Shown in pieces: positions 7,729 through 51,002 of a stretch of 64,000 nt of DNA; the first letter of the stretch is position 1, and every line of letters begins with the position of its first letter. The stretch spans positions 7,375 to 71,374 of the forward strand of contig JAUWQW010000002.1 in assembly GCA_030610885.1 (NCBI GenBank). Reading direction: 5' to 3'. The notes under the pieces are model-generated. The model ran no database searches. It saw only the letters and a program-made list of their open reading frames with translations, and was not told the origin of the DNA. Source of the stretch: Candidatus Aminicenantes bacterium. Its GTDB lineage: Bacteria; Acidobacteriota; Aminicenantia; UBA2199. The translations under genes and the position numbers were made by a program.

Positions 7729-8730
7729 ATGAAAAAAAAGATTCTTATATTATTAATTACTTTATTTGTTAGTTCATTGTTTTTATTCTCAGATGAGAAA
7801 CAGAGTTCTTGGAAAAATGCCATTTCTGAACAAAATATAGAATTGAGAATGTCCCTACTTGAACAATATGCTGAAAAATATGCACAAGAAGGGGGTTCAA
7901 ATTTAAAAGATCTTTATTATCAATTATCTCTGGATTCATTCAACCTTAAGAAATATGAAAAAACGATCACTTACGGTGAAAAGGCATTGAATTTGAAAGA
8001 TATTAAAGATAGAAATAAACTTCAATTGAATCTTTTACTTGCAAACTCTTATAATGTTACAAAAAAGGATCTTGATAAAGCTTATCATTATGCTGATTTA
8101 GTTCTTGAATTGGCAAAAACAATGAAAGCTAATGAGAATAATACAGACAAATATGATAAAAAATATATTGTACCAGCATTGAGAATTCAGATATTTATTC
8201 TGTATTCAAAAGGTAGAAATAATCCTGAAATGATGGAAAAAGCAGCAGGAAAAGCTACTGAGATTTTTAATAATTATGATAAATCGACAAAATCATCCAA
8301 TATGATTGTTACTCTGGCTAATAATTTGTATAAAATGAAAAAAATCAGAAGTGCTATTAGTGTGTTTGAGCATGTTTGTAATGTTGAAAGACCAAATTAT
8401 AGGTACTTAAGTATGCTTGCTAGCTGGTACAGTAAGATAGATGATAAGGAAAAAGCAGTAAATTGTCTTGAGAGATCTTATAGAATAAGGAAAAATGCAA
8501 AAACTGCTTATAACCTTGGTGTGATGCTTCAAAAGAGGGATATAGATAGAGCCATTAGATATTTAGCTGAAGCTCATATTATGAGACATGAAAATAAGGA
8601 AGCAAAGGACTATAAGTTATTAAGACATTTATATTATAATGTTAAGGCTTCAAAAGACAAAGCCAAAGAAGAATTGGATGCAGGTTTTCAAGAGATAATT
8701 AATTCTGCCAGATCAAGGTTAGGAAAATAA
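7729..8730 (+). CDS. secreted TPR-like repeat protein, function unknown
   Basis: N-terminal signal peptide MKKKILILLITLFVSSLFLFS. Helical repeat composition. AGGAGG-like RBS (GGAGGAAATCTAATG). Confidence 0.5.
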   Translation: MKKKILILLITLFVSSLFLFSDEKQSSWKNAISEQNIELRMSLLEQYAEKYAQEGGSNLKDLYYQLSLDSFNLKKYEKTITYGEKALNLKDIKDRNKLQLNLLLANSYNVTKKDLDKAYHYADLVLELAKTMKANENNTDKYDKKYIVPALRIQIFILYSKGRNNPEMMEKAAGKATEIFNNYDKSTKSSNMIVTLANNLYKMKKIRSAISVFEHVCNVERPNYRYLSMLASWYSKIDDKEKAVNCLERSYRIRKNAKTAYNLGVMLQKRDIDRAIRYLAEAHIMRHENKEAKDYKLLRHLYYNVKASKDKAKEELDAGFQEIINSARSRLGK

Positions 8731-23848: not shown

Positions 23849-24655
23849 TTAGTCTAATTGTCCTTGAAGTTGCACTATTCCCACAAGGGAATCATTGTAA
23901 CGCTCTTTATATTTTGAGAAGATCTCAACATCTTTTCTTGTGTAATATGGCTTGGCTTTGAGTTCTTTTTTAAGGCCTTCAATACCTTCTTTTGCAGCTT
24001 GTTTTGCAACTTCAGCCATTTTCCTCATACCCTCTTTCTGTTGTGATGTTAGATAGGTTTCCTTAGTTAAATCTCCTAAATCTGCAGTTTTAAGGCTTGT
24101 TTCAATGCTCATAAGTAATTTATATAAAAAGTCAACCTTAGGTGCACGTTTAGCAATTTCAACAGCTTCTTCTAAGTTCTCAAAACCAGCTTCTTTTACA
24201 AGCGCTTCTATTTGTTCTTTAGTTGGACGTGCAGCATCGATTTTCTTTTTTATCTCTTCCTGCATTTTGTTTATTTTCTCTTCATCTTTTGTGCTCATTG
24301 CTTCTATTTTTTTCCCCATTTCGTTCGAAAGTGTTCCCATGGTTTTTCCAAATTCATTAAAGATTTTTTCTACCTGTGGAGCAGCTTTAAGCAATTTTTT
24401 CCAGGATTCTTCACTTACATATGGTTCTCCTTTACTTAAAACATCTTCGAATTCAGCAATAGCATGTGTTGGAAAATATTTATCTTTATTACTTTTCGTG
24501 GTGGCAACCTCTGTCTTGCTTTCTTTAACTTCTGCAACTTCCTGAGTCGTTTTCACATCTTTGGTTACTTGTTCATCCTTTTTTGTGGTTGAACCATTTT
24601 TAGAACAATATACTGATAAAAAAACAAAGAGTATAATAATTAAAAATTTTTTCAT
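23849..24655 (-). CDS. hypothetical lipoprotein
   Basis: Signal peptide with lipobox LSVYC|S. Lys/Glu-rich mature part. Confidence 0.45.
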   Translation of the reverse strand: MKKFLIIILFVFLSVYCSKNGSTTKKDEQVTKDVKTTQEVAEVKESKTEVATTKSNKDKYFPTHAIAEFEDVLSKGEPYVSEESWKKLLKAAPQVEKIFNEFGKTMGTLSNEMGKKIEAMSTKDEEKINKMQEEIKKKIDAARPTKEQIEALVKEAGFENLEEAVEIAKRAPKVDFLYKLLMSIETSLKTADLGDLTKETYLTSQQKEGMRKMAEVAKQAAKEGIEGLKKELKAKPYYTRKDVEIFSKYKERYNDSLVGIVQLQGQLD

Positions 24656-24720
24656 TTTCCCCTCCAGATTTATACTAAAAGCCTTAAATTAAAATGTCAA
24701 CAAATATTTAAAAAAAAATC

Positions 24721-24766
24721 AAAAAAATTAGTCTATTTTATTGACAATTAACTTCTAATGGATGAC
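24721..24766. repeat. 46-bp direct repeat copy A (AAAAAAATTAGTCTAT-N4-TTGACAATTAACTTCYAATGGATGAC), 42/46 identical to copy B at 30581-30626
   Basis: Direct visual alignment of the two copies; they bracket the 5.8-kb Avs-containing block. Confidence 0.8.
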
Positions 24767-27700
24767 CCCAGAATTCACACGCCCCCGTGCGGGAGGACAA
24801 CAGCCATAGGCTTTTAGTGAAATTTACCTGCTAGATTTTCTTATATATTTACCAGCGGTCATGTGCGGTTACTATGCTATCTACTCCGTAAATCTCATGG
24901 GAAAGCATAAGGTCGATCAAATCGAGAATTTTTTTTCTCGCCTCCGCGTTCGATTCAGATGATGTGTATTCGCGCTTCAGAAGATCCTGGAGCTGATGCA
25001 CATCGGTACTGAGCCGTCTATGTTGATCGCCTTTCTCCGTAATATCTGTGATGACTTGTTGAGTCGCTTCAATAACAAGATCAAGCACGTCACAAGTAGC
25101 ATCTTCCAGCATGTGCAAAATAGAGAACCCGTTATCCGGGAAAGCTGGTGATTTCAAAAACACAGCCGCGAGCTCTCGATATAACTCAACTTCTTTTGCT
25201 TGAACATTTCTGAATGCGTTTGCAGCTTTATTGCGAACTTGCTCATCTTCATCGAAGAAAAACTCTTTTAAAAGGGCTTCGGTGCGATGCCTATTCTCAG
25301 CCCAATTTATTGCATCACCTGTAACAGCAGACAAAAGCCGTCGATGATCAATGCTTACAGAAGTCAGATTATCGGCTTTGTCAATGTAGGCTTCGTTTTG
25401 AAAGCTTTCGCAGAACACAAGCCATGCTCCTATTAGTTCTTTTGTTTCGTCCCCGCTTTTTAACAGTTTTGTGACAAGTTCGTCAGCGAGTTCTGGTAAC
25501 CAATAGAAAATATACGGAAATAAGTGAATACCAGTATGGGTAATGAGTGGAGAAAGGCGCGTTGCATCGTATTGGTGTGGCGTACCATCCGGAAGGATAA
25601 TCAACCTGCGAATTGAATCAGAAAAACGCTTCTTGTTCATATTGAATAAAGGTGTCAGCGGTTTCATCATACAGCATCGCACACTGATTAGTGTCTCTTT
25701 CTCAAGAGCGATTTCAATTGCTTTCCAGACTCGGATCTCTGTCTTTGGAACTTTCCACAGAATAGAACCCAATGCTTCCCACGCCCTACCACGCGCATTG
25801 ATACCACGGATATGAAAACACTCACCTCGTTGAACGAGCATATTGATGTCTATTGTTTCGCGTTCTGTATTCTGTTCATCTGAATCTTCATTCTCATTCG
25901 CTTCTCCGTTCAGGGCATACCAAACCAATATTTCTAGTATTTCAGAATCGCCAGCGACATGAGGATGTCTTTCGAGTAACCGAGCGATATCACTGCCAAA
26001 AGGCTTATCTGGATGCTGGTGAGCACGTTTAATTGCTTGAGTTAACGATATATCAGAAGGAGCTTCCGCCTCTGCCAAACCCCATAGAATATTTTCGGTA
26101 TATGAGTGGTGAGCTGTGTCAGGGATTTTCAGACTTAAATCTGAGAACCGAATTGGGTCTTTTTTGGTAGCTTCCTGAAGTTCTCTAGCGAGCTCTCTCG
26201 CTCCGCCATCAATAAAATTGCGACCTCGACGTCTATCTTCATCATTGTCGTAGCGTTTTATTACAGACAACCAATGATGGTCTTTCATCCTATCACATTG
26301 TGCCCGCTTGATTGGAGAACCAACACAATGCAACTCCATATGGTTTGGCTCCGCAATTTTTTCTTTTGGAAATTTTCGGCGGAGTCCATACAGGCGTGAC
26401 TGAGTAACCGAATTGAGCAACTCTTCACCTATTGTTTCGAGAATACACCATTGCTTGTATCCTGAGAGATTAAGGTAACGTATGACTCTCTTTTTTGTCC
26501 GAAAGGGTTCTGTTTCGCCCTTCTGATTGATTTCTCTAAGAAGGCGAATAGCAAGATCGATTTCCGGGGTATGGTCGAGAATAGCCTGTTCAACAACCTT
26601 CTTCTCTCCAGAATTTAGATGCGGCAACGCCACATGGCAAGTATGGGCAAACGACAACCAATCAGCTCCATCCCAACCGGCACCAAAAACCATTTCGTTG
26701 GTTACAAGCGTGGATAAACGGTTCCCAAAAACAGTTGGGTTGGCTTGAATTATTTCTAAATGCAAATGCATCAGGCATTCATGCTTATAGGGATCAAGTT
26801 TTTCAAGATAGATGGTTGCTGTCTCTGGATCTTCTTGAGCAATTTTCTTGAGAGATGTACGGTACATTCCCAGAAATTCATCAAATCCGAAACGATGTCC
26901 CGAGTATGTTCTATAATTAAAATTGTACCAGCTTCCCCCGGTTTCACCTTCCGCAATCACCATGTCAATCGAACGGACTATTGCGTCAGTCGTCCCTAGC
27001 AAAAATGTTTGCGGTGTTTTTTTTGCAATCTCGGCAAGAGAGTGGGTGTCAATCGCTTTCAACTCGTCGTGCTCAAACGGATTACACCCGGGATTAAATG
27101 CAAACCAAGCCTCGAAAAGCGAATAAAGAATGCGCCCACAACGCTCAGGTGATTTTTTTCCCCATGTATGTAGCAACATCATAATGCGATGCCCTTGATC
27201 CTGGAACAGATCGTTGGGGTGCGAATTGATTACATCTTCGCATAATTGCAGAAGATCATCATCAGGTTTTCCACGTCTAACAAAACCGAACCAATTTAGG
27301 AGTCGTTTTGCACGTTCCGTATCGCTGCCCCACCAAGAACGTAATAGACTTGCGACTTCTGCTGGCCGTTCCCCTGCAATATTGGAAAGCCACCACAACA
27401 CCATTTCAGCACGTTCTTTGTCGTCACCGTCAATTTGCTTTGGAATCCAACTTTTTTCATTCAGCAAATCAAACCATGCATGAGTGGACAAAACCGCATT
27501 ACGGAAAAGCAGATGGAACTTTCCGCTTTGCTCATCAAATCGAGAAATTATCTCAAATTCCTGTTCACTAGGTTTTTCGACAGAGTTTAACCATTGGCAG
27601 ATAGCAGTCTTAATATGAAAGCGAATATCGTTACTTGAAAGAACCGACGAAAGTTCGATGAGATAACGCTGAAAATCATTTTGCCTTAAAGCTTCAAGAA

Positions 27701-29580
27701 TCTGCCGTACTTGTGTCCGCCGAAAAAGATGCTGTTCTGTTGCTGTAAGCAGATCAACTAAGCTCACGTCTTGATTTACAAATGCTCTTGCATAGATATG
27801 ATCAAAAAAGCTCTCGTGGAAAAAATTAACTTGACCACGAGACGAAATAATCAATCCTTCGGATGTCAAAATATCGACAGCGCCTAGAAAGGCATCCAAA
27901 ACCGAAACTGGAGCACTCAATTTTTGCCGCTCGCTCATCCAATTACACATGACTGTCAATGGCTGGACCAGTGACCAAGGCGGTTTTCGTTCTTTTGTTA
28001 TGGTGCGCTGTTTTTTCTCGATCAGTTTTTCGTGCAAATTTGATCGGGAATAAAATGAAAATTCCGAATCATCGATTTCCAGAAAAACTGCAAGATTAAT
28101 AGGTAAGCGAAGCAATTGGCGTTGTGGTTCATTTAACGAAGATGCATCAACGTCTTTATTTTTCAGAAGCGGCTCGATATCTGCTTTCCAATCAAGTAAG
28201 GGGACATCAATCGTTTTTGCTCGATTAGCCTCTTTCAGTCTCTTTAACCTCGGATCACTATCCAGATCAAATGTTCGGCACACAACGACAATTCTAACAC
28301 CTCCGAAATTGTGCGCATCGGTAATCAGCCGAAATATAACTTCTTTAACCTGTCCATCACGGCCCGATACCTCGCTGACAGCATCAACTTGATCAATAAA
28401 CAGAATGGAAGGTGTGGTTGGGAATGTCCCCTTCAGAGTGCTGACAGGGCCTTCTTCTCTGCCTGTCAGTTTCTTTCCGAGTTCCTCCCTTGTGCCGCAC
28501 GATAAATAGTGGTCAACTCTAAGTGCTAAATGAGGAACGTTGAGTTCACGGAGTTGCTCGATTACACCACGTACAATACCCGATTTTCCAGAACCAGCAA
28601 TACCCGTCAACAACACTAATTCTGGACCATCAGATTTGAGTATTTCATCGACAAGAGTGCCTGATTGACCCCTGGGAATCGTCTCTCCACCTGCGCCAAA
28701 AGGTGTATATGTTTGAAGATATGCTTCGGTTTCATCTTTCAACCGCTGTTGAATAGTAGGGTCAAACGCCCATTCCTTAAACTTCAGCACCCCTTGTAAT
28801 TTTATAGCATTTCGTGCAGATTCTGACGTAAGGGTTTTATTAAAATTATTTTCAAGGATATCTCGAAGATTAGGATAAGCAGCTTTCCCGCCACTTTGGA
28901 AGTATAGATCATCGTGAGATTCAATAAATAAGTCCAGGTCTATTTCAGAAATGATTCTAACATAGCTTCGTTTAAGCCAGTCGAATGCGACTTCATCGGG
29001 CTGCTGCCACTCATTTTTTAATTGCTGAAAGGAACCATTTTGATCCCCAGAAAGTATTTCCGCATATTGTTCATGTGAGTTTGAAATCCGCGCTTTTTCT
29101 GTAAGGGTTCTAAAATCTTTAGCATTGTCTTGAGAGACAAAATAGCAATATGCCTTCTTATCTGCCAATAACCGATTAGCAAATGCTTTTAATACTCCCT
29201 CTTTCTTAAGAGCATTTATTGTCCAGTTTCCTTTTGGAGCATTAACCTTGGTTTGATGCCACTCTGTAATTTCCCCACGAGCAATCGCAAATTCGAAACC
29301 TTGATATTCTGTTTCAACACCTTCGAAATTCAACCAATGTGCCTTGTCAGCAATTACATCCATTAGAGATCGGACCAGCCACTTCGCTTCGTATCGATTT
29401 CCGAGTTTATCTGCTATTCCACCTGGTATCATTTTAGGTCAGTCCAAATATTAGTTTTCATCCTAATGGGAAAAGACAATTTTATTTCACTCATATGCTC
29501 TTTATTGGACGACTGCATTTGCTGCCACAACAGAATACATAACGGTGGAAGTGAGAAAAAAAATAGAGTCATCCATTAGT
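24755..29580. mobile_element. compositionally foreign (visibly GC-richer) ~4.8-kb cassette bounded by a perfect 12-bp inverted repeat CTAATGGATGAC (24755-24766 and 29569-29580), carrying one gene (Avs-like STAND NTPase); no transposase/integrase inside
   Basis: Sharp base-composition shift coincident with the inverted-repeat ends; both terminal repeats read directly from the sequence. Confidence 0.5.
24849..29432 (-). CDS. antiviral STAND (Avs)-like NTPase: N-terminal Cap4/DUF4297-like PD-(D/E)xK nuclease domain, P-loop NTPase, long C-terminal helical-repeat sensor region
   Basis: 1527 aa. N-terminus GG...G.RYEAKW...D....EGVETE...EFAI..GEITEWHQTKV fits the D-E-QxK nuclease pattern. Walker A LLTGIAGSGKSG, Walker B-like SILFIDQVDAV, then ~1100 aa of helical repeats. 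Foreign GC content. Confidence 0.7.
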   Translation of the reverse strand: MIPGGIADKLGNRYEAKWLVRSLMDVIADKAHWLNFEGVETEYQGFEFAIARGEITEWHQTKVNAPKGNWTINALKKEGVLKAFANRLLADKKAYCYFVSQDNAKDFRTLTEKARISNSHEQYAEILSGDQNGSFQQLKNEWQQPDEVAFDWLKRSYVRIISEIDLDLFIESHDDLYFQSGGKAAYPNLRDILENNFNKTLTSESARNAIKLQGVLKFKEWAFDPTIQQRLKDETEAYLQTYTPFGAGGETIPRGQSGTLVDEILKSDGPELVLLTGIAGSGKSGIVRGVIEQLRELNVPHLALRVDHYLSCGTREELGKKLTGREEGPVSTLKGTFPTTPSILFIDQVDAVSEVSGRDGQVKEVIFRLITDAHNFGGVRIVVVCRTFDLDSDPRLKRLKEANRAKTIDVPLLDWKADIEPLLKNKDVDASSLNEPQRQLLRLPINLAVFLEIDDSEFSFYSRSNLHEKLIEKKQRTITKERKPPWSLVQPLTVMCNWMSERQKLSAPVSVLDAFLGAVDILTSEGLIISSRGQVNFFHESFFDHIYARAFVNQDVSLVDLLTATEQHLFRRTQVRQILEALRQNDFQRYLIELSSVLSSNDIRFHIKTAICQWLNSVEKPSEQEFEIISRFDEQSGKFHLLFRNAVLSTHAWFDLLNEKSWIPKQIDGDDKERAEMVLWWLSNIAGERPAEVASLLRSWWGSDTERAKRLLNWFGFVRRGKPDDDLLQLCEDVINSHPNDLFQDQGHRIMMLLHTWGKKSPERCGRILYSLFEAWFAFNPGCNPFEHDELKAIDTHSLAEIAKKTPQTFLLGTTDAIVRSIDMVIAEGETGGSWYNFNYRTYSGHRFGFDEFLGMYRTSLKKIAQEDPETATIYLEKLDPYKHECLMHLHLEIIQANPTVFGNRLSTLVTNEMVFGAGWDGADWLSFAHTCHVALPHLNSGEKKVVEQAILDHTPEIDLAIRLLREINQKGETEPFRTKKRVIRYLNLSGYKQWCILETIGEELLNSVTQSRLYGLRRKFPKEKIAEPNHMELHCVGSPIKRAQCDRMKDHHWLSVIKRYDNDEDRRRGRNFIDGGARELARELQEATKKDPIRFSDLSLKIPDTAHHSYTENILWGLAEAEAPSDISLTQAIKRAHQHPDKPFGSDIARLLERHPHVAGDSEILEILVWYALNGEANENEDSDEQNTERETIDINMLVQRGECFHIRGINARGRAWEALGSILWKVPKTEIRVWKAIEIALEKETLISVRCCMMKPLTPLFNMNKKRFSDSIRRLIILPDGTPHQYDATRLSPLITHTGIHLFPYIFYWLPELADELVTKLLKSGDETKELIGAWLVFCESFQNEAYIDKADNLTSVSIDHRRLLSAVTGDAINWAENRHRTEALLKEFFFDEDEQVRNKAANAFRNVQAKEVELYRELAAVFLKSPAFPDNGFSILHMLEDATCDVLDLVIEATQQVITDITEKGDQHRRLSTDVHQLQDLLKREYTSSESNAEARKKILDLIDLMLSHEIYGVDSIVTAHDRW

Positions 29581-29592
29581 TATTAGTTTATT

Positions 29593-29949
29593 TTAAGAAT
29601 TAATCCGAATTTGCGATAAAATGCTATGAATTAAGGAAGATCCTATTTGTCCAGGACTTACATTTATTCCATCCTTTTTTTTATAATTTTCTGCTATTGA
29701 TTCTAATTTTTGCCAATCCCCTTCAATTAAAGGTATTTTATTACGCTCCTTTGTTGCTCCTCTTAATTTTGGGCGTCCTCCTGTTGAAATTAACCTTTTT
29801 AAAATAAACTTACGTAAAGTAAACAAAGAAATAGGATTCCTTTTAGGGTCTATTTTAATCCCGATTTCTTTTGCCCCTAAAGTATCTGCAATAAGTCTAT
29901 GACTGATCCTTTTCTGATTTTTAGTTGTATCTTTAATTGTTTTTGTCAT
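29593..29949 (-). CDS. hypothetical small basic protein (possible DNA-binding; GGRPKL motif)
   Basis: 118 aa, AT-rich unlike the adjacent Avs gene. Second gene of a two-gene unit with its own promoter. Confidence 0.4.
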   Translation of the reverse strand: MTKTIKDTTKNQKRISHRLIADTLGAKEIGIKIDPKRNPISLFTLRKFILKRLISTGGRPKLRGATKERNKIPLIEGDWQKLESIAENYKKKDGINVSPGQIGSSLIHSILSQIRINS

Positions 29950-29966
29950 TTTTCCAAACCTCCTTA

Positions 29967-30413
29967 TTATTTCTTATCAAAATTTGAAATTCTAAAAAAT
30001 TTTCCATCAAACTCAAATACAATTTCTCCTTGATTACTTTCACGACCAAAACAGTGTAAAAATTCTCTGAGGGATTTTAAATTATCCAAAAAATTGTCCG
30101 CTTTTATATATGTGTAAACTATTGTAGTTTTTTCCCAAATTATATCCTCATCTCTTAAAGATGAAATGTCTTTATCATTCTTCTGAGGTATTAACCAACT
30201 CCCATCTGCCGGTGGTAATGAGGTTGCCCCCCCTCCTATGATTGTAAGTAAAGCTCTGGCCCTTTTTATCCAAGCATCAAGTTTTTTTATTTTATTTCCA
30301 TTTTTATCTTTGTTTGGAATATATAATGCTAATTGTTGAGTCGAGGGTTCTTCATCAGCACCCAAAATTTTTGCTAAGCTTAATTTGATTGTATCTAATA
30401 TTTTATCTACCAT
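29967..30413 (-). CDS. hypothetical protein; start refined to ATG 30413 (MVDKILD...)
   Basis: The longer ORF from 30470 would run through its own promoter. GAGGTGA RBS 5 nt upstream of ATG 30411-30413. Confidence 0.45.
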   Translation of the reverse strand: MVDKILDTIKLSLAKILGADEEPSTQQLALYIPNKDKNGNKIKKLDAWIKRARALLTIIGGGATSLPPADGSWLIPQKNDKDISSLRDEDIIWEKTTIVYTYIKADNFLDNLKSLREFLHCFGRESNQGEIVFEFDGKFFRISNFDKK

Positions 30414-30438
30414 ATTTCTCACCTCATTCTCTAATATA

Positions 30439-30467
30439 AATATAATACTTTTGGGGTCAAATGTCAA
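30439..30467 (-). promoter_or_regulatory. sigma70-type promoter TTGACA-N17-TATATT driving the 29967-30413 / 29593-29949 genes (and possibly the Avs gene)
   Basis: Minus-strand TTGACA at 30467-30462 and TATATT at 30444-30439, followed by RBS GAGGTGA. Confidence 0.45.
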
Positions 30468-30580
30468 CATAAAAAATAAATAATTAAGATATCTCTTTTT
30501 AAAACAAATGAGAACGGTTGAAATGTTTAAAAATATAACAGCAGCTAAAGTTGAATATTTTTTTAAAACCAGATAAAATA

Positions 30581-30626
30581 AAAAAAATTAGTCTATCTAC
30601 TTGACAATTAACTTCCAATGGATGAC
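30581..30626. repeat. 46-bp direct repeat copy B (partner of 24721-24766); also contains AATGGATGACTCT shared with the inverted right end of the Avs cassette
   Basis: Direct alignment: 4 mismatches in 46 bp versus copy A. Confidence 0.8.
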
Positions 30627-30764
30627 TCTTATAGTCCTCCTAGGAGGAAGGAAGGTAATTCTTCCATTTTTTCATCTCACCTATTGACATTCAGGTAACT
30701 TTTACCTATATTTAGATCAAAGGATGTAAAACGATTTTCCTATTTTGTGTTAAAGGGGGTTGGT

Positions 30765-31346
30765 ATGAAATGTCCAGAATGTGGGAAAAATTTTCCTCAA
30801 GATAACAAATTTTGCCCTGGCTGTGGGAAGAAAGTGTCGGATTTTATTTGTAATGCAGTTAATCAGTCAAAAAACAAAAAAGGAGTATATTTAACAAAAG
30901 AAGAAGAAAAAAGAAAAGCTGAATTATTGAAAAAGGGTACACCTACATGGCAAATGATTTTGTTATTAATTATATTTGTGGGTGGATTTTATGCAACTTT
31001 CATTTATGATTCACCGAGTGATAAAAAACCTGTTTCGGTTCAAAAACCCAAACGTCCCGAAATGAATGCATTTGTAAGATATTACCAAGGAATGATTGAA
31101 GTCACTAATAGAAACAATTACGACTGGACGCCCAAAGAAACATGGGAGGGTAAGGCTATCAAATTGGAAATAAACGATAAGTTTACATATTACTATAGGG
31201 GTAAAATGAAGGCAGGACAAACTTACAAAATACCAATTCTCAGCTTTTCTAAAAAAGATGGCACAAGGTTTAATATATTGATTTATAAACTTAAAGTAAT
31301 TTTGATAACAGGCAGTGAAGGTATAGAGATTTTGAATTGGAATTAA
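30765..31346 (+). CDS. zinc-ribbon membrane protein, function unknown (start refined from the GTG at 30747 to ATG 30765)
   Basis: MKCPECGK...CPGCGK zinc ribbon, one TM helix (ILLLIIFVGGFYATFI). RBS AAGGGGGT before ATG 30765. Upstream CTATTGACA-N17-TATATT promoter at ~30683-30716. Confidence 0.5.
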   Translation: MKCPECGKNFPQDNKFCPGCGKKVSDFICNAVNQSKNKKGVYLTKEEEKRKAELLKKGTPTWQMILLLIIFVGGFYATFIYDSPSDKKPVSVQKPKRPEMNAFVRYYQGMIEVTNRNNYDWTPKETWEGKAIKLEINDKFTYYYRGKMKAGQTYKIPILSFSKKDGTRFNILIYKLKVILITGSEGIEILNWN

Positions 31347-31381
31347 AAGTTAGAAATAAATAATTAAAATAAGGAAGACCT

Positions 31382-32320
31382 ATGAAAAAAAGTAAATTTA
31401 TATTGTTATTTGTTATGGGAATTTTATTATTTTTCTGTAATACCAACAAAATTGATGAAATCATTAATATACCAAAGGACTTCAAGCCCCAATATTCAAT
31501 TGTTGAGACAGAGGATTTAAGCTATCAGTATGTCAAAAGGATTTCGGTAAGAATAACCGTTCCTAAAGGTTTATCAAAACCAATACTTGAAAATAACATT
31601 AAGCATGCAATAAAAAAGGCATACAATGATCAGGAACCTAAACCAAAAGTAATTTGTGTTTTTGCTTATGAACTGGGCACCAATACTAATGACTATTATA
31701 CTGCCGGCAAATGTAATTTTGCTCCCTTTGGAGATTGGTCAAAGGCAGATCAGGATGTTCCTATGGATCAGTATGACTTGAAGTTTGAATTTTATGATGA
31801 ATATTTTGGAAAAAAACCAAAACCTAAAAAAGTAAAAGTAACCAAGGAAACAGCGAAAGAATACAATGTTGATCTTAATATAAGGAAAATTGCATCGAGA
31901 ACCTTTGTGGTTAATGCTAAAACCAATTTTCCTGATGGTACTATCTTACTTGTATCAGTTGGTAGAGTCCATTACTTGAAAGGAAGAAGTTCAAAATACT
32001 CGGGAGATTTATTTTCTAAAGATATAAGGGTCAAAAACGGGCTTATTAGTACAAAAATAATAATTAATGATAAGAAATGGTACAATGAACATTATTCAAA
32101 GCAAAAGAAATTAGGAAAAGACCTGATACCGGATATTGTAAAAATTTCTAAAAAAGTCAATTTTGATGTTTTGTTTTCACCTAAAAGGCAAAAATCCGAA
32201 GATATCCTTAGAATACTCGGGAAAGATGGTGAGTTTATTAAAGGGAGAGGAATTGATAAATCTTATTCATTTAATACGATGAGGGTATCCAAAGAGATCA
32301 GTATTGCTTTTTTTATTTAG
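31382..32320 (+). CDS. hypothetical lipoprotein
   Basis: Signal peptide with lipobox LLFFC|N. No recognisable catalytic motif. Confidence 0.45.
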   Translation: MKKSKFILLFVMGILLFFCNTNKIDEIINIPKDFKPQYSIVETEDLSYQYVKRISVRITVPKGLSKPILENNIKHAIKKAYNDQEPKPKVICVFAYELGTNTNDYYTAGKCNFAPFGDWSKADQDVPMDQYDLKFEFYDEYFGKKPKPKKVKVTKETAKEYNVDLNIRKIASRTFVVNAKTNFPDGTILLVSVGRVHYLKGRSSKYSGDLFSKDIRVKNGLISTKIIINDKKWYNEHYSKQKKLGKDLIPDIVKISKKVNFDVLFSPKRQKSEDILRILGKDGEFIKGRGIDKSYSFNTMRVSKEISIAFFI

Positions 32321-32408
32321 ATCATTTACTTATTTTTAAGTTTGCCTATTGGCATTATATAAAGTAGCCCTTCTCCTTTTTCAGAAATGTGTTCATCATT
32401 TTTCCTAA

Positions 32409-32487
32409 ATCTATTGACAATGAACAATAATTCTCCTAATATTTCATTAAGATGAAAAAAGGATTTTCCTATGGTGTCTTCCGTTGA
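32409..32487 (+). promoter_or_regulatory. conserved promoter-leader module copy C: TTGACA(32414-32419)-N17-TAATAT(32437-32442), leader, AAAAAAGGA RBS-like tract, ATG; short uORF MKKGFSYGVFR (32452-32487). ~90% identical over ~65 bp to copy D at 46948-47017
   Basis: Direct alignment of the two copies, which sit upstream of unrelated genes. Confidence 0.55.
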
Positions 32488-32593
32488 AGAACATTCACAA
32501 TCTTGAAAGAGAGAGATTAACTTGTATATATTAAAAAATGTATAAGGATGAGTTAAAGGAAGCATTATACGAAAGAGATGGAGAAAAATAAAT

Positions 32594-34015
32594 ATGATAT
32601 TTAAAAGGTTAAAGGAAGAATATGATTCCTACGAAAGTTTAAAACAGATCTGGGAAAAAAGGTCAACAATATTTATTTTAGAATTAATCTGGGTCATATT
32701 CATTTTATTTATATTTGTTGTAAAATATATTGATCTAAATTTCAAATCCATAAAGGGGATTATAACAAATTACATTGCGCTTCGAAATTTACTGGCAATT
32801 TATGTTTTAATAGCATTATTGATATTTGTGATATGGTATTTTAAGAGAAAAATCCCAAATATCCCTAAAGATAGAATTGGTATAATTTTTGCGATATCCA
32901 CAAAAAATCTAAGAAAAAAAAACATAATCAAAGAAGATTTTATCAGGAGAATGAAAACAGAGATTGCTTCTATTTCAACAGATAGATATGTTGTTGAAAT
33001 ACTTTCTGAATATCGATCATCTTTAATAATTGAGCCAGAAAATGAATCGGATGTATTAAAAGAGACAAACAAATATCTTAAAAGATCTAATGCTAAATTA
33101 TTAATTTTTGGAATTGCTCAAGAAAGGAATATGGCAGGGAAAGAGTATTACAATCTTATTTTAAATGCAGTCATCTCTCACCCAAATATTGACAAATCTA
33201 TAAGTGTACGGATCGGACATGATATGAGATTGGCATTACCAGAAGAAACTAGAATACCTATAGAAGACGAGTTAAGAGGCTTTGAAATTGTATCTTCACT
33301 ATATGGAATTTCGGCGAAGTTGTTTATTGGAATTGCAGATTATATTTCCCAAGATTATAGAAGGGCAATAAAAATTCATAAGTTGGTGCTAAATGAATCT
33401 GAAAACAAACCTGTAACCACTGAACTAGAAAAAACAGTACTTTTAAATATAAAAAATATTTCTAAAAAAGCTCTAATTGGCGAATGTATAGAACTTGTTA
33501 TTAGTCATTATAGAAGGACAGGTGATTATGAAGGTATGTCTGATGTATTGGACTTAGCGAAAGAAATTGACCCCAAAAATAAACCGATGGCGCTAAGCAG
33601 GGCCATTTATTATTTTCTAAATGGAAGAAATATCAAAAAGTCATTAAAAGAACTTGAAATTGCCAAAAACACAAAAGATTATACATGGGCTTATAGCATG
33701 GCATTCATAGAGGGATATGTAGGCAATTTAGATGAAGCATACAAATTATATCGAAGGGCATCTGAAAAGAAGTCAGTTCTGGATTCGTATATTCAATGTG
33801 AAGAATTTATATATAAAATCATTGAGGAGGAACCAGATAAAATCCAGTTATATTATTGCCTGGGACTGCTTATGTATATGTCAAGGGAAGACATGAAGCT
33901 TGCTAAAGAGAATTTTGAAAAATTTATAGAGCTAGCTGAAGAGAGAAAATTATTTAATGAACACGTAAATCATTCGAAAAATTATTTAAACAAAATAGAA
34001 TTAATAGGAAAATAA
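32594..34015 (+). CDS. membrane protein with two N-terminal TM helices, a cytoplasmic alpha/beta-like domain and a C-terminal TPR-like helical region; candidate partner/effector of the downstream TIR protein
   Basis: TM helices IFILELIWVIFILFIFVV and LLAIYVLIALLIFVIWYF. 27-bp gap to the TIR gene, same strand. Confidence 0.5.
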   Translation: MIFKRLKEEYDSYESLKQIWEKRSTIFILELIWVIFILFIFVVKYIDLNFKSIKGIITNYIALRNLLAIYVLIALLIFVIWYFKRKIPNIPKDRIGIIFAISTKNLRKKNIIKEDFIRRMKTEIASISTDRYVVEILSEYRSSLIIEPENESDVLKETNKYLKRSNAKLLIFGIAQERNMAGKEYYNLILNAVISHPNIDKSISVRIGHDMRLALPEETRIPIEDELRGFEIVSSLYGISAKLFIGIADYISQDYRRAIKIHKLVLNESENKPVTTELEKTVLLNIKNISKKALIGECIELVISHYRRTGDYEGMSDVLDLAKEIDPKNKPMALSRAIYYFLNGRNIKKSLKELEIAKNTKDYTWAYSMAFIEGYVGNLDEAYKLYRRASEKKSVLDSYIQCEEFIYKIIEEEPDKIQLYYCLGLLMYMSREDMKLAKENFEKFIELAEERKLFNEHVNHSKNYLNKIELIGK

Positions 34016-34042
34016 TAAAAATAAGTATGAAAGTGATATACA

Positions 34043-35032
34043 ATGAGCTATATGTCAGATAACTCTGAATCAATTATCTCTTTATTAAAAAAGAAATTAG
34101 ACCTTAAAGGATTAGACAAAGAATATCGTGTACTTGAAATTGGAAGAAGTGAAATTATAGAAGTAGAATACGACAGTTGGGGGCGGGGACAGTATTATAA
34201 TAATTTATATATTGAAATTCCGATTGAATTTTTTATTGAAATTGAGGTTGAAATTTCAAAAATTGAAGAACTTTTAAAAAAAGAACTGGAATCATTAAAC
34301 AGAGGTGATACAGGCGAGCATATCAGTTCAATCACAATAAATGCATCAAAAGAAACATCTCCTGCAGGAATTCCTTTATCAAAAATAAATAAAACTAATG
34401 GAGATTCTCTTTGGGAAAAAGGGAATTTTAGACTCTTTCTTAGTCATGTTTCAACTTCAAAGAAATTAGCACATGAATTAAAAGAAGATCTTCTTAAATA
34501 TGGGGTGTCAGCATTTGTAGCACATGATGATATAGAACCTACTTCTGAATGGCAACTAAAAATTGAGGAAGCACTTCAAAGTATGGAGGCACTTACTGCA
34601 ATAATAACCAAGGACTTTCAGAGTAGTTTTTGGTGCGATCAAGAGACTGGAATTGCAATAGGATTAAAAAAACTAGTTGTTCCTGTCCGTATGGGTGCGG
34701 ATCCACATGGATTCTTAGGAAAGTATCAGGGACTATCTGGTTTTGATAAAGAAGCTATCCAAATTTCAAAAGAAATCTTTACTGCATTGACCGGACATGA
34801 ATCTACAAGAATTAAAATGGCATTAGCGGTAATTCAACTTTTTGTTCATTCTGATTCATATTCCAATGCCATATTTAACATGAGTCTTCTTGAACAACTT
34901 CCTGTAATAACTCCAGATATGGCAGAGCAACTAAAAAAATCAGTTAATGAAAATTCACAAATAAATGGGGCTTTTGGTATTTCTGAACGTGTATCTCAAT
35001 TACTGAATAATAAGGGCTATAAAACTAGGTGA
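34043..35032 (+). CDS. TIR-domain protein (bacterial TIR_2-like, ThsB-like), with ~125-aa N-terminal and ~100-aa C-terminal extensions of unknown fold
   Basis: aa ~128-225: FRLFLSHVSTSKKLAHELKEDLLKYGVSAFVAHDDIEPTSEW...ALTAIITKDFQSSFWCDQETGIAIG...LVVPVR matches the TIR pattern (FISH/SY start, I.PG..W loop, S.WC..E with conserved Glu). Confidence 0.65.
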   Translation: MSYMSDNSESIISLLKKKLDLKGLDKEYRVLEIGRSEIIEVEYDSWGRGQYYNNLYIEIPIEFFIEIEVEISKIEELLKKELESLNRGDTGEHISSITINASKETSPAGIPLSKINKTNGDSLWEKGNFRLFLSHVSTSKKLAHELKEDLLKYGVSAFVAHDDIEPTSEWQLKIEEALQSMEALTAIITKDFQSSFWCDQETGIAIGLKKLVVPVRMGADPHGFLGKYQGLSGFDKEAIQISKEIFTALTGHESTRIKMALAVIQLFVHSDSYSNAIFNMSLLEQLPVITPDMAEQLKKSVNENSQINGAFGISERVSQLLNNKGYKTR

Positions 35033-35365
35033 TTATTTTCTTAAAATGTTTTAAAAATCTTATCTGCAGTAATAATCGAACTTTTTGGAGAATTTTCCAC
35101 AGTAGGGGAAAGCTAAAGGGGACAGTTAATTTATCTTACCTATGTTAACCTGTTTTTTCTGGGGCTGTCATAAATTGCCAAAATTTTCATTTTTACACAA
35201 ATTTTTGATTTCTAAATGTATCAGTACAGATTATATTTATCAAGGATGATAATAACAGAAAATTAAATATCCAAGGAGCGGATATTTTAAGATTTTAAGT
35301 TTTATTAAAAATATGATATAAATTTATTTTATATTGGTTTTTTAAACAGAATCAGGAGATTTTTA

Positions 35366-36436
35366 ATGAAAAATAAAAATAAGTCAGAAAAGATGAAACA
35401 TGCAACTGATATGTTACTAAAAGAACGTAATTTTATTTCAGCTATTCTGGAAACTACTGGTGCACTGGTTGTCCTTTTTGATAGTCAGGGGAGATTTATT
35501 CGAACCAATGAAGCGTTTGAAAGAATCACAGGTTTTGAAATAATTGATATTGTTGGCAAAACATTTTGGGAAGTTTTGTTAATACCGGACGATGTGGAAC
35601 ATATAAAGGGAATATTAGATAAAATAATGTCAGGAGAATTCCCCGTTGAATATCAGAGTAAAATTGTTACCAGAGGAGGCAAGACACGATCGATTGTATG
35701 GTCAATAACTGCACTGAAAGATGGTAGAGGGACTATTGAATATATTATTGGATCCGGAATTGATATTACAGAAAGCATGGTTGTTAAAGAGCTATTAAAA
35801 GAGACCAGTCAGAACCTTATTCAGAGTGAGAGGAAGTACAGAAGCCTTATCGCCAATATGCCGGGTGCCGTATACCGCAGCAGATTAAGTAGTGAGGATT
35901 CAGTAGAGTTTTTAAATAACCAGATTGAAGAAATTTCGGGATATCCGGCATCCGATTTTTATCAGGATCGGAAGAGATCGTTTAAAAGCATTGTCTATCC
36001 AGATGATTATGAATGTTTAATGAAAACCATTCAGAAGGGAATTGATAAAAAAGAACCCTATAGAGTTGAATATAGGATCTTACATGTTGATGGTTCGGTT
36101 CGATGGGTATCTGAGAGAGGTCAGGGCATTTTTGATGAAGATGGACAGGTTTTATGGATTGATGGAATGATTTTTGATATTACTGAACGAAAGAATCTTG
36201 AGAAAGAGAGAGAGGTAATGATCAGGGAACTGACCGATGCATTGAATAAGGTTAAAACACTTCGAGGGCTTTTACCCATTTGTTCGAATTGTAAAAAAAT
36301 CAGGGATGATAAGGGGTACTGGAATCAGATTGAAGAGTATATAAAGGAGTATTCAGATGCGGAATTCAGCCATAGTATTTGTCCGGAGTGTGCTCAAAAA
36401 TTGTATCCTGAGTTTTATAAAAAAAAATCGGAATAA
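35366..36436 (+). CDS. PAS/PAC sensor protein with C-terminal Cys-rich zinc-ribbon-like tail; no kinase or GGDEF output
   Basis: Two PAS-like segments (FISAILETTGALVVLFD..., NMPGAVYRSRLS...). C-terminus LPICSNCKKIRDDKGYWNQIEEY...FSHSICPECAQ. Confidence 0.6.
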   Translation: MKNKNKSEKMKHATDMLLKERNFISAILETTGALVVLFDSQGRFIRTNEAFERITGFEIIDIVGKTFWEVLLIPDDVEHIKGILDKIMSGEFPVEYQSKIVTRGGKTRSIVWSITALKDGRGTIEYIIGSGIDITESMVVKELLKETSQNLIQSERKYRSLIANMPGAVYRSRLSSEDSVEFLNNQIEEISGYPASDFYQDRKRSFKSIVYPDDYECLMKTIQKGIDKKEPYRVEYRILHVDGSVRWVSERGQGIFDEDGQVLWIDGMIFDITERKNLEKEREVMIRELTDALNKVKTLRGLLPICSNCKKIRDDKGYWNQIEEYIKEYSDAEFSHSICPECAQKLYPEFYKKKSE

Positions 36437-36470
36437 TCAAAATGAATCAGATTTTTCTAAAAACATATAA

Positions 36471-37937
36471 ATGAAAGGAGATTATAGGATGAGAAAAGAA
36501 ATAAAAGTTATTTTTGTTTTTGTTGCAGTTATTATTATTTTGTTTTTATATTCATGCTCGGGAAAGGGAGAAGAGAAGAGAGATGCTCAAATAAATTCTT
36601 CTGAAAAGATTTATGAAAAAAAAGAACTAGGAGAACCAGCAACTCAACCCTCAGGGGAACAGAAAGTTCAAGAAAAATCGGTTAATAAAGCTGTTTGTGT
36701 AAATATAGTTCGGTTTTCATTTACAGATGAAGTGGCTAAGGTTAAAGCTCCTGCAGGTAAAATATTTCTGGTTCTTGAAACCAAATGGGAAAATATTCAT
36801 CCAAAACAGAAGATTGAGAAAAGCAAGCTAGAAGGAAAAAGAGATCACACAATGGGAATGAAAAAATTAATGCAGGGTGGAGAAGAGAAAAAAGAGGAAT
36901 ATGTAGATGCTGATGTAGCATACATGGTAAGAGAATTTGTAAATCATGCTTATATATTAGCTGATGGAAAAAGTTTCAGTATGGATAAAACCACAGCTGA
37001 GATTCCAGAAGGAATTAATCCCAAAGGTGATTTCATCCTTCCAAAATTTGGTGATACAAAAAAAGTTAAATTTGTTTTCCTGCTTCCAGGTGATCATGAG
37101 AATTTGGCATTCCATTTTTTTGATTATAATTACGGACATATTCTAATTCCAATCAAAGGGGATCCACTCATTGCAAGAGGTAAGGATCAACTGAAGGGAA
37201 AATTTCTTGGTGAAATTAAAAGTGATTTTGTCAATATCAATGCTCTTGAGATCAGATTTTCAAATGAATATAAAGGTAAAAAAGCACCTGACAGCTGGCA
37301 TTATGCTCTGGTTGATCTGGCAGGAAAGAGCCTCTCAGGACAAAGGGTGAAAGACATAGTTCAGATTAAGCCAGAATCTTATGTCTGGGTCAGTACTGAA
37401 GAGGGTTATCTTTACTATAGCTGTGGCGGAAGCACAACAGATGAGGGATTTATTCGCTTTACACCTGAGGTTTATCAGCAACAGAGCGTGGCTTTTCTAT
37501 TGCCTGATATAATTAAAAATATTAACCTGGGTATCCGGATACGCAATCAAGTGTTTGTTTTGAATCTTAGTAAAGATTTTAAAAAGAAGATTCCCAATCC
37601 TATTGAGTCACATCGGGATGGAGATGTGATGGAGGTAATGGTCTATGGGATTGAAAAGAGAGATAATAAGATTATCCTTAATCTTGGGATTCAATCTCTG
37701 GCCAAGAGCGGAGTGGAGATACAGAGAAAACAGCAGTTTATTCTGATTGCCAATGAACAGAAAATTTATTTGAATGATGATGAAACCAATTCAGGTCTTT
37801 TTCGTCCGCCTTCTCCCTTTGTAATTCCTCCAGGATTTTTTGTTCGTTTTGAACTTATATATACTTCTGATATATCTCCAGAAAAGCTTTATTTCAGGGG
37901 ATTTAAAAGTGAAAAATATTTTATATTAAAATTTTAA
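36471..37937 (+). CDS. hypothetical lipoprotein
   Basis: Signal peptide with lipobox LFLYSC|SG. 488 aa, no recognisable motif. Confidence 0.45.
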   Translation: MKGDYRMRKEIKVIFVFVAVIIILFLYSCSGKGEEKRDAQINSSEKIYEKKELGEPATQPSGEQKVQEKSVNKAVCVNIVRFSFTDEVAKVKAPAGKIFLVLETKWENIHPKQKIEKSKLEGKRDHTMGMKKLMQGGEEKKEEYVDADVAYMVREFVNHAYILADGKSFSMDKTTAEIPEGINPKGDFILPKFGDTKKVKFVFLLPGDHENLAFHFFDYNYGHILIPIKGDPLIARGKDQLKGKFLGEIKSDFVNINALEIRFSNEYKGKKAPDSWHYALVDLAGKSLSGQRVKDIVQIKPESYVWVSTEEGYLYYSCGGSTTDEGFIRFTPEVYQQQSVAFLLPDIIKNINLGIRIRNQVFVLNLSKDFKKKIPNPIESHRDGDVMEVMVYGIEKRDNKIILNLGIQSLAKSGVEIQRKQQFILIANEQKIYLNDDETNSGLFRPPSPFVIPPGFFVRFELIYTSDISPEKLYFRGFKSEKYFILKF

Positions 37938-46636: not shown

Positions 46637-46690
46637 TTTGAGTTGATGGGTAGATGTGTAAATGGGTAGATGGGTGGATGACAAGTGAAA
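46637..46690. repeat. direct repeat copy 1 of a GGGTAGATG-rich ~45-bp element (AGTTGATGGGTAGATG...GGTAGATGGGTGGATGA); partner at 47908-47960
   Basis: Direct alignment. The copies flank the HEAT-lipoprotein cassette. An 11-bp inverted repeat ATGTGGAAGAA (46608-46618 / 46754-46764) brackets the low-complexity tract. Confidence 0.6.
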
Positions 46691-50993: not shown

Positions 50994-51002
50994 CATAAAT
51001 AT

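Follow-up and report, generated by a model that had tools for sequence, protein, structure and literature searches.

Repeats at the edges of accessory DNA have several familiar origins. Insertion sequences (IS) and transposons leave solo ends and MITE-like remnants, and IS ends with outward-facing -35 boxes are a well-known part of IS biology; islands built by integrases hold arrays of cargo between att repeats and carry repeated att fragments. For one family of defence genes, Avs7, extensive horizontal transfer has been reported (bioRxiv 10.64898/2026.01.04.697583). Here we analyse a 64,000-nt stretch of a Candidatus Aminicenantes contig (the window), in which an Avs7-like gene and a two-gene unit lie between two direct repeats. 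A preliminary description had taken the pair for the scar of an insertion whose target or attachment site, a single ancestral site close to a promoter, was duplicated. The repeat, which we call M, proves instead to be a dispersed family in low-GC Aminicenantes, with subfamilies and a sharp outer edge, and it is found in two other metagenome-assembled genomes (MAGs) and at about 20 metagenome loci.

Repeats, cargo and neighbours in the window

M is an oriented repeat of about 60 bp with the form (TTTG)AAAAAAAATCAAAAAAATTAGTCTAT-N4-TTGACAATTAACTTCTAATGGATGAC-YCY. The direct repeat pair that was first described is borne out, as the window contains exactly two occurrences of the 26-mer TTGACAATTAACTTCYAATGGATGAC, at 24741-24766 and 30601-30626, both on the plus strand, where none is expected. 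A repeat finder stretches the pair to 52 nt at 90% identity (47 of 52; 24715-24766 and 30575-30626, spacing 5860), and a profile built from copies elsewhere widens the two same-strand copies to those listed below. The right edge therefore lies about 3–5 nt further out than originally drawn, with GAC-CCC and GAC-TCT at this edge being variants of the repeat tip. The inverted third partial copy is also confirmed: the 10-mer AATGGATGAC is present three times (24757 and 30617 on the plus strand, 29568 on the minus strand) against 0.17 expected. The right inverted repeat, previously placed at 29567-29580, is off by one base and is actually a 12-mer at 29568-29579, which together with TCT(AT) gives a match of 15–17 nt (29563-29579) that we call M'. 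An nhmmer profile search of the window returned no M besides copies A and B, nor any further copy at the right border of the variable island, and M' was the next-best hit, below threshold at E 0.14. The features of the locus are as follows.

24711 to 24769, plus strand: M copy A, a solo copy of the subfamily with N4 = TTTA, tip GAC-CCC (nhmmer E 8e-18)
24770 to 35292, no strand: variable island of about 10.5 kb, from the conserved 268-aa gene to DNA that is conserved again at 35293
24770 to 24806, no strand: GC-rich spacer between the M tip and the Desulfobacterota-homologous DNA, 64% GC over 24771-24806
24807 to 29459, minus strand: imported single-gene module, the predicted Avs7-like STAND/AAA NTPase (ORF 24849-29432, 1527 aa) with some 25 nt of DNA on its upstream side and 42 nt on its downstream side
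29460 to 29562, no strand: 5' spacer of the cassette, without homology to the Desulfobacterota loci; its T-run end (minus-strand reading) lies beside M'
29563 to 29579, minus strand: M', an inverted M tip fragment (CTAATGGATGAC-TCTAT)
29580 to 30570, minus strand: AT-rich two-gene unit, with a 118-aa gene (29593-29949), a 148-aa gene (29967-30413, ORF open to 30470) and a promoter at 30467-30439
30571 to 30629, plus strand: M copy B, a solo copy of the subfamily with N4 = CTAC, tip GAC-TCT (E 7e-17)
30646 to 30750, plus strand: terminator-like hairpin (30646-30665), then the promoter and leader of gene 30765 (TTGACA-17-TATATT, 30684-30712)

The tips of A, B and M' coincide with the edges of the GC-rich gene segment (A and M') or bound the two-gene unit (M' and B). 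Copy A faces right, into the foreign cassette, with its inner A/T-tract abutting the -35 of the promoter at 24700-24672 (minus strand), which serves the 268-aa gene, and M', which is 13 nt downstream of the 118-aa gene, faces left into the same cassette.

The step in base composition at the cassette is real, with 42.5% GC over 24807-29459 as compared with 28–31% in flanking DNA and 29% across the two-gene unit, and the segment is foreign, as had been suggested: it shares 88% nucleotide identity with loci in Desulfobacterota, with the homology confined to 24807-29459. The closest proteins, which are 85% identical, likewise come from Desulfobacterota MAGs. The NTPase module aligns with that of SeAvs7 (PDB 9N00, apo, 1523 aa) over residues 260–638 versus 266–642 (phmmer against the PDB, E 3.7e-15), and the two proteins show no sequence match outside this region. 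Pfam gives AAA and weak nSTAND1 matches, and PADLOC gives only a weak match to a candidate family, PDC-M54A. Judged from its sequence, the gene is an Avs7-like STAND NTPase that was acquired horizontally, and recently, from a Desulfobacterota-like donor. The spacer at 24770-24806 carries small hairpins (GCCCCCGTGCGGGAGG, and AGCCATAGGCT followed by TTTT). Its first bases, AGAAT, recur after the M tips of L044 and L036, and may be part of M.

Neither of the two small genes has a family match in Pfam, PHROGs, NCBIfam or PADLOC. The 148-aa protein is a member of a widespread uncharacterised family, and its structural model (pLDDT 93) has only a weak SAM-lyase-like match (TM 0.52–0.58); the model of the 118-aa protein is unusable (pLDDT 47). 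With no family matches for either gene and a weakly SAM-lyase-like predicted fold for the 148-aa protein, which is not a recombinase, a mobility role for this pair was rejected. The same four resources reveal no recombinase or transposase domain in genes 23849-34015, a span that contains the whole bracketed segment, which speaks against the scar of a site-specific insertion.

Copy B had also been described as lying close to a promoter, upstream of gene 30765 and next to a TTGACA promoter-like motif; this gene encodes a 193-aa protein with only three homologues in all. M does not act as its promoter. The TTGACA of M has no -10 box at 16–18 nt, and the gene has its own promoter at 30684-30712, separated from copy B by the terminator-like hairpin. 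The gene's own promoter belongs, as a diverged example, to another dispersed family, the 'P' promoter module. The likeness noted earlier between M and promoter modules at 32410 and 46948 holds for a shared core, but the core of those modules is GTCTA-TTGACAAT(T/G)AAC, from which M differs by a 5-nt indel.

Along with the Avs7-like gene and the two-gene unit, the island carries a 193-aa and a 312-aa gene, and a P module that drives a TPR gene and a TIR-domain gene. In a relative that is 92% identical (L014), homology is lost at about 24731 and regained only at 35293, with HicAB, a 333-aa gene and DUF2196 at the island position instead. As homology resumes at 35293 and not after copy B, gene 30765 is itself island cargo, and copy B sits mid-island rather than at an edge and is flanked by island DNA, which does not support its reading as the ancestral site. 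Copy A is present in the sister strain L045 and truncated in L014, beside different cargo. Since copy A or its remnant occupies the same place in relatives with other cargo, it predates the Avs insertion and was not made upon the arrival of the Avs7-like gene. The contigs of other relatives at this locus break in repeats (L013 and L046, as does that of L045).

M as a dispersed repeat family

All M copies align over about 60 nt and diverge directly after GAC-CCC or GAC-TCT, and the outer edge is always sharp (...CTAATGGATGAC-YCY), followed by unrelated DNA. Exact-pattern scans place M in the two other species-level Aminicenantes MAGs, and 24 JGI metagenome stretches match M patterns, about 19 of them being true copies. 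The N4 segment divides the family, with TTTA common to copy A, L034, L044 and L023b, and CTAC common to copy B, L020 and a multicopy set that we term class 1. The two tip variants recur among the other copies, unlinked to the N4 type. The differences between A and B thus mark subfamilies common to other genomes, rather than random drift since a duplication. Copy B is identical to the L020 copy over 36 nt and near-identical to the class-1 ends, and M' is identical to copy A over 12 nt and to the tip of the L034 copy over 17 nt.

The class-1 copies number 12 and have differing outer flanks (L023, L025, L026, L029, L032, L033, L035, L037, L038, L040, L041 and L042). Where inward sequence exists, they continue into identical DNA as far as about 127 nt from the tip, which is where the assembled stretches end. 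Many identical copies with unrelated flanks and a fixed boundary, as expected of the ends of a mobile element, are thus found in these 12 copies together with the solo ones. As M at these 12 loci terminates a longer stretch of identical sequence where assemblies break off, a signature of such elements, M appears to cap a multicopy mobile element. Neither a transposase or recombinase nor a second element end was recovered, every class-1 stretch ending about 127 nt inside the repeat. Logan contigs from four runs are interrupted within copy B and where copy A has its tip, even though A and B have no 31-mer in common, which indicates that there are more M copies in the window's own population. One locus, L038, contains a second direct 'tip, 95 nt, M' arrangement that is smaller than the one in the window; its sequence continues past a variant copy to non-coding DNA and a gene that looks HTH/ImmA-like when its translation is judged by eye. 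At a contig end, an IS110-like N-terminus is encoded 150 nt away from the L023b copy.

No inverted tip partner was found within 2–6 kb in the available DNA of L019, L020, L034 and L044, an inverted tip was seen only in the window, and no target-site duplications were seen around solo M copies. The M and class-1 patterns are absent from viral contigs, and a phage origin of M was rejected for this reason. An RNA gene or riboswitch was rejected as well, as Rfam finds nothing in the window except one tRNA-His and nothing in L038 1000-1600, and the M end region folds no better than its shuffles (z -0.93). Inspection showed no matching arms or palindrome, and a Dif/Xer or attC-like site was likewise set aside. 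The literature search returned no relevant work on repeats or IS elements of Aminicenantes.

The solo copies have a polarity, with accessory or defence cargo typically lying inward of M and core genes outward of its tip. On the inner side are a type II restriction-modification (RM) system (L019), a type IIG RM system with a GajB-like helicase (L020), PDC-S01 (L034 and L044) and the start of an IS110-like gene (L023); on the outer side are Pth, an RluD-like gene (read from sequence), a metallophosphatase, an aminotransferase and similar genes. Copy A does not follow this rule, with a core gene inside and foreign DNA beyond its tip. In several genomes the cargo lies beside M with no mobility gene nearby, and the apparent enrichment in defence neighbours rests on about six loci, taken without a genome-wide background. 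The orientation of M relative to its neighbours varies, as it sits between convergent genes in L020 and after gene 3' ends in L019 and L044. The idea of a recurrent sequence context for accessory genes survives in that M recurs beside accessory and defence genes elsewhere, though in a changed form. Many M copies also lie beside ordinary housekeeping genes, and such occurrence of the motif at many loci without foreign genes was what the preliminary description itself regarded as contrary to its proposal. The high conservation that solo copies show between species may also be due to selection for a function.

How the bracketed arrangement may have arisen

As expected of a target-site duplication or an attL/attR pair, copies A and B are direct repeats on the same strand that flank an insert, 5860 bp apart. 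Given the family to which both belong, we infer that their likeness reflects common membership and not the duplication of a target site. On balance we think it probable that A and B are independent copies of M, that M is the terminal module of mobile insertions, and that foreign DNA was joined at the tips. M would then be the conserved terminal module of a mobile insertion family in low-GC Aminicenantes, capping a longer multicopy element in related populations and persisting elsewhere as solo ends. In the window, a variable island of about 10.5 kb would have accreted beside the 268-aa gene, with the left border of the island marked by copy A, an old solo end, the two-gene unit bounded by copy B and the inverted 17-nt M', and the Avs7-like gene placed exactly between the facing tips, A pointing rightward and M' leftward. 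The M tip may be the site at which a putative transposase or recombinase of the element cuts and joins. Foreign DNA could have been inserted into or next to abutted element ends, or it could have been delivered between two copies of the element that later decayed.

An alternative is that M is the att site of a recombinase acting in trans, and that a circular element with a B-type M recombined at a chromosomal A-type tip, leaving 5.86 kb of cargo between attL (A) and attR (B), much as in cargo arrays bounded by att repeats. The pair's geometry and its direct orientation fit this account, as do a cargo that starts a few bases from the tip of copy A, the smaller direct arrangement in L038 and the lack of mobility genes near the cargo adjoining M in several genomes; a crossover at the tip would also predict that A and B differ in subfamily. 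We nevertheless consider it unlikely, as no integrase was found in or near the segment, the inverted M' inside the 'element' is left unexplained, and the right flank of copy B is island DNA absent from L014, so it was not the ancestral neighbour of copy A. Moreover, there is one M per cargo in the available DNA of L019, L020, L034 and L044, and no empty or hybrid site appears in six samples.

A different possibility is that M is an immobile regulatory module under selection (an A-tract UP-like element with TTGACA, or a factor-binding site) which lies at cassette edges only because promoters sit between genes. GTCTA..TTGACAATTAAC is common to M and to the P modules at 32410, at 46948 and at 4423-4479 of L019, the A/T tract of M is directly upstream of the -35 of the 268-aa gene, and many tips are followed within 10–50 nt by an outward-reading promoter-like TTGACA. 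This explanation is very doubtful given the missing -10 box, the inconstant orientation of M and the fact that no RNA family or stable structure was found; furthermore, 12 copies with at least 60 nt of identical extra sequence and assembly breaks imply recent copying, not convergent conservation. To the notion that the inverted 12-mers (24755-24766 and 29568-29579) are crossover sites of an inversion switch we give hardly any credence. A flip, joining copy A to TCTATTTTTTTTCTCAC, would put the Avs7-like gene behind the TTGACA of copy A as a phase-variable defence. The 12-bp inverted repeat is perfect and lies exactly at both cassette edges, and after the flip copy A would read ...GGATGAC-TCT, as copy B does. 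Yet the cassette has a single orientation in two ENA assemblies (ERZ4220366 and ERZ4220937), the M' junction is unbranched and in the same orientation in six samples (these two, ERZ25746585, and Logan SRR12623520, SRR14865926 and SRR12623521), no invertase is nearby, and the TTGACA of M lacks a usable -10 box. The switch was rejected, since contigs run on across the right inverted repeat with no branching and a single orientation was seen.

Once A and B are read as independent copies of M, what looked like the scar of an insertion becomes a lineage-wide family of repeats, which in this uncultured phylum marks the places where accessory DNA meets the core genome. Should M prove to be the working end of an element that carries cargo, its sequence would offer a simple means of locating defence islands, and their limits, in metagenomes of Aminicenantes, and it would point to an undescribed mobility system. 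The window itself records how a lone Avs7-like gene, cut back almost to its ORF, passed very recently from one phylum to another.

Comparison with known systems

M most resembles the ends of IS elements and their MITE-like remnants. It is multicopy, has identical copies with unrelated flanks, a sharp outer boundary, subfamilies and assembly breaks, is truncated or solo in variable regions, and carries an outward-facing TTGACA about 23 nt from its tip. Unlike the case for IS ends, neither a transposase nor an inverted partner nor a target duplication could be demonstrated for M, and its solo copies are of fairly constant length (about 60 nt) with cargo on one side only. This one-sided cargo and constant solo length suggest asymmetric ends, such as those of one-ended, rolling-circle or site-specific elements. 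With islands of cargo between att repeats the locus shares direct repeats around cargo that lacks mobility genes, the stacking of cargo in one hotspot and the presence of defence genes; however, M is not a tRNA fragment, is dispersed over many unrelated loci and has no integrase that could be found, and copy B lies within the island.

Integron cassettes, including integrase-less attC clusters, are similarly small units of a gene with a conserved non-coding site and can carry defence cargo, and a layout of promoter module, genes and then M is seen in both L019 (P, type II RM, M) and L020 (P, type IIG RM and GajB-like helicase, M). By analogy, low-GC Aminicenantes might have a system of defence-gene cassettes, with a P module at the 5' end, an M of about 60 bp at the 3' or terminal end and a putative trans-acting recombinase or transposase that cuts at the M tip; in function it would parallel integron cassettes, although its sites would not be palindromic and its insertions would be dispersed, and the window would be a stack of such cassettes in which the Avs7-like gene was captured tip to tip. 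We regard this wider proposal as quite unlikely. On inspection, the M consensus has neither the imperfect palindrome nor the GTTRRRY core of attC (R''/L'' and L'/R' boxes), and M units are scattered singly rather than in arrays and have their own promoters.

The cargo gene finds its nearest counterpart in Avs7. The alignment with SeAvs7 is limited to the NTPase region and does not extend to the N-terminal effector or to the bilobed sensor, the domain with which Avs7 recognises phage major capsid protein, but the proteins are alike in size (1527 versus 1523 aa), in the position of the NTPase module and in constituting a single-gene system. The extensive horizontal transfer reported for the Avs7 family is also seen for the gene in the window, whose trimmed passage between phyla fits the reported high mobility of that family.

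Repeats and genes around the Avs7-like cassette

The plus strand of the window carries the 26-mer TTGACAATTAACTTCYAATGGATGAC in two places (24741-24766 and 30601-30626; chance expectation 0), and a repeat search gives the pair as 52 nt at 90% identity, spaced 5860 bp apart. These are copies A (24711-24769) and B (30571-30629) of an oriented, ~60-bp dispersed repeat that we call M, its outer edge being the tip. The 10-mer AATGGATGAC recurs on the minus strand at 29568-29577 (0.17 expected), where a perfect 12-bp inverted repeat is found (24755-24766 / 29568-29579); together with TCT(AT), this inverted tip, M' (29563-29579), matches copy B and copies in other genomes over 15-17 nt. GC composition shifts at the repeat positions, with 42.5% in 24807-29459 versus 29% in the two-gene unit and 28-31% in the flanks. 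The repeats that the preliminary description saw bracketing the cassette and an AT-rich two-gene unit are therefore real.

23849-24655, minus: 268-aa protein; promoter-like site 24700-24672 immediately adjoining copy A
24849-29432, minus: 1527-aa AAA/STAND NTPase; weak PADLOC match to candidate family PDC-M54A
29593-29949, minus: 118-aa protein without family matches
29967-30413, minus: 148-aa protein without family matches
30765-31346, plus: zinc-ribbon membrane protein (193 aa) with its own promoter at 30684-30712

Searches with Pfam, PHROGs, NCBIfam and PADLOC detected no domain of an integrase, transposase or invertase in the genes spanning 23849 to 34015. The family of the 148-aa protein is widespread and uncharacterised and has no Pfam entry (373 representative clusters at 50% identity). 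The protein's confident AlphaFold model (pLDDT 93) shows a weak likeness to phage SAM lyases (TM 0.52-0.58); these lyases, together with a CRISPR-associated lyase of SAM-AMP, are the closest solved folds (TM about 0.5, 9-11% identity). The protein is not a recombinase. The 193-aa gene at 30765 is essentially without homologues in a homologue search. Copy B had been taken as a promoter-proximal site for this gene; because the TTGACA of M lacks a -10 box at 16-18 nt spacing, M is not its promoter, and a terminator-like hairpin (30646-30665) separates copy B from the gene's own.

Elsewhere in the window, a 299-aa homologue of IS200/RAYT-like Y1 transposases (51034-51933, minus; motif DNHYHLLL, read by eye) is bounded by 53-nt inverted repeats (50701-50753 / 51956-52008), with a 241-nt tandem-like duplicate of its own 3' part alongside (50755-50995 / 51028-51268).

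A dispersed repeat family and a promoter-leader module

In an exact-pattern scan with one genome per species, two further MAGs of Candidatus Aminicenantes had the M core, the loci being unrelated; a scan of JGI metagenomes yielded 24 stretches, of which about 19 are true M copies, all in ~30% GC DNA. Aligned copies give the oriented consensus (TTTG)AAAAAAAATCAAAAAAATTAGTCTAT-N4-TTGACAATTAACTTCTAATGGATGAC-CCC or -TCT, with flanking DNA that is unlike right from the unit's end. Twelve multicopy examples (class 1) each have a different outer flank; where their stretches extend inward, they are identical as far as about 127 nt inside the tip, at which point the assembled stretch stops. This is how a multicopy mobile element behaves in short-read assembly. 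Logan contigs of four runs from the window's own population break within copy B and at the copy A tip; as A and B have no 31-mer in common, the genome must contain further M copies. M was not found in the viral contigs scanned, matched no Rfam family and showed no stable fold. M, from an uncultured phylum, is new and uncharacterised, whether as a repeat or as a mobile-element end.

In class-1 ends, CCATTGAAGTAAATTAT and CAATTAACTTCTAATGG form an imperfect inverted repeat in subterminal position (about 14/17 matching, spaced about 50 nt), and stretch L038 (1343-1512) has a second, directly oriented ATGGATGAC 155 nt upstream; just inside M there are TTGATT-17-TATAAT hexamers, read by eye, that face inward.

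Neighbours of M copies in other stretches
L019: inner side, type II RM pair; beyond tip, metallophosphatase
L020: inner side, split type IIG RM and GajB-like helicase; beyond tip, RluD-like gene (read from sequence), convergent with M
L034: inner side, PDC-S01 (AAA_14/DUF4143) gene; beyond tip, peptidyl-tRNA hydrolase
L044: inner side, PDC-S01 (AAA_14/DUF4143) gene; beyond tip, unannotated 224-aa ORF
L030 (truncated M): inner side, PIN_8 protein; beyond tip, unannotated 167-aa ORF
L023b: inner side, IS110-like N-terminus 150 nt from M's inner edge; beyond tip, gamma-glutamyltranspeptidase gene

The recurrent link of M sequence with accessory genes that was first proposed is supported in modified form by the solo copies, which have defence cargo on one side. 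Class-1 tips adjoin ordinary genes (e.g. PFK, ClC channel, DUF362). In L023 (4900-5157), 150 nt separate a diverged M copy in inverted orientation from an ORF start, MKHYVGMDLHSTNT, at the contig end; this start resembles the N-terminus of an IS110-family recombinase, and an IS110-type element may have inserted at M's inner edge. In L036, an M copy and a 398-aa gene without annotation are followed, 2.5 kb further on, by a CRISPR array (~12060-12194, repeat GTTTCAATTCCTTATAGGTAGGGTTCAAAG), inside which the contig ends.

A second family of dispersed non-coding sequence, P, consists of a near-consensus promoter, CTATTGACA-N17-TAATAT, and a conserved ~35-nt leader, TTTCATTAAGATGAAAAAAGGATTTTCCTATGGTGT; GTCTA..TTGACAATTAAC is common to M and P.

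Occurrences of P
Window: 32410-32477; 46948-47015; diverged at 30680-30750
L019: 4423-4479
L020: ~7900-7960, minus

Cargo in L019 and L020 starts with P. The accessory genes that P precedes are unrelated (TPR and TIR genes, a 253-aa gene, a type II methylase, a type IIG RM), and P looks like a portable promoter-leader cassette. M is of moderate interest, and of greater interest if the M/P cassette idea is true. The P-driven pair at 32594-35032, a TPR-like 473-aa protein (weak, sub-threshold Pfam TPR) and a 329-aa TIR_2 protein (weak PADLOC SAVED_TIR match), is missing from the relative L014 and is probably a further defence unit within the window's variable island. Low-complexity direct repeats, GTWGATGRGTAGATGG... 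(46642-46681 and 47915-47954), enclose a 1.27-kb unit of P and the 253-aa gene; L014, L036 and the window (50620-50690) have comparable degenerate short-period sequence close to M or cargo edges. A third conserved promoter-like intergenic module, 89-96% identical across ~66 nt, precedes small genes that are unrelated, each time in another genome (window 48114-48179, L038 1845-1912, L030 876-943).

Origin of the arrangement

The preliminary description read A and B as a target- or attachment-site scar duplicated at insertion, a reading that the comparisons do not bear out. N4 is TTTA in copy A, as in L034, L044 and L023b, and CTAC in copy B, as in all class-1 copies and L020, whose copy is identical to B over 36 nt; the A/B differences are subfamily marks. 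Copy A is an old one: L045, a sister strain at 95-99% nucleotide identity, carries it in the same position, and L014 (92%) retains just its inner ~28 nt beside other cargo (HicAB, a 333-aa gene, DUF2196). Homology between L014 and the window ends at about 24731 and returns only at 35293-35390 and 36445-36541, which makes the variable island about 10.5 kb long and puts copy B in mid-island. Because M stands at many loci beside native genes, the single-scar reading is refuted.

At copy A's place, L013 (8-146) and L046 (1-58) have, upstream of their homologue of the 268-aa gene, a different miniature element of ~140 bp, whose terminal inverted repeats, GGGGTCAGGTCTTCATTCTTCACACA, are perfect over 26 bp. 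Its tip, ..TGACCCCAT, is similar to the M tip, ..ATGACCCCAT, and pieces of it are found also in L020 and L036.

M is most likely the terminal module of a mobile-insertion family, with A and B as separate ends stacked within one accreting island. The Avs7-like gene sits between two facing tips (copy A and M'), and the two-gene unit is flanked by outward-pointing ones (M' and copy B). The tip would be the cut-and-join site of a putative element enzyme, where foreign DNA would have been joined, either by insertion where element ends abut or by being brought in between two copies of the element that have since decayed. No partner tip like M' was seen within 2-6 kb for the cargo in L019, L020, L034 and L044, and no target duplications were found around M copies.

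The geometry of A and B would also agree with attL and attR sites served by a trans-acting recombinase, but the island limits conflict with this model and paired M copies are lacking elsewhere. The identical multicopy ends, and an orientation relative to genes that is inconsistent, speak against a purely regulatory M, while inversion switching of the cassette is opposed by the single orientation in every sample covering a junction.

Relationship of the cassette gene to Avs7

The foreign origin claimed for the cassette holds. The nearest proteins to the 1527-aa NTPase are from Desulfobacterota MAGs (85% identity), with remoter homologues in Electrothrix and on rhizobial plasmids, and 88% DNA homology to Desulfobacterota loci is limited to 24807-29459, which is the ORF extended by ~25 nt on its upstream and 42 nt on its downstream side. 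The gene thus came by a recent, gene-sized horizontal transfer. The top solved relative is apo SeAvs7 (PDB 9N00, 1523 aa; E 3.7e-15); the match covers the NTPase region, which has the same location in both proteins. "Avs" is reasonably kept as "Avs7-like", with the match confined to the NTPase module, and extensive horizontal transfer is described for the Avs7 family itself (bioRxiv 10.64898/2026.01.04.697583).
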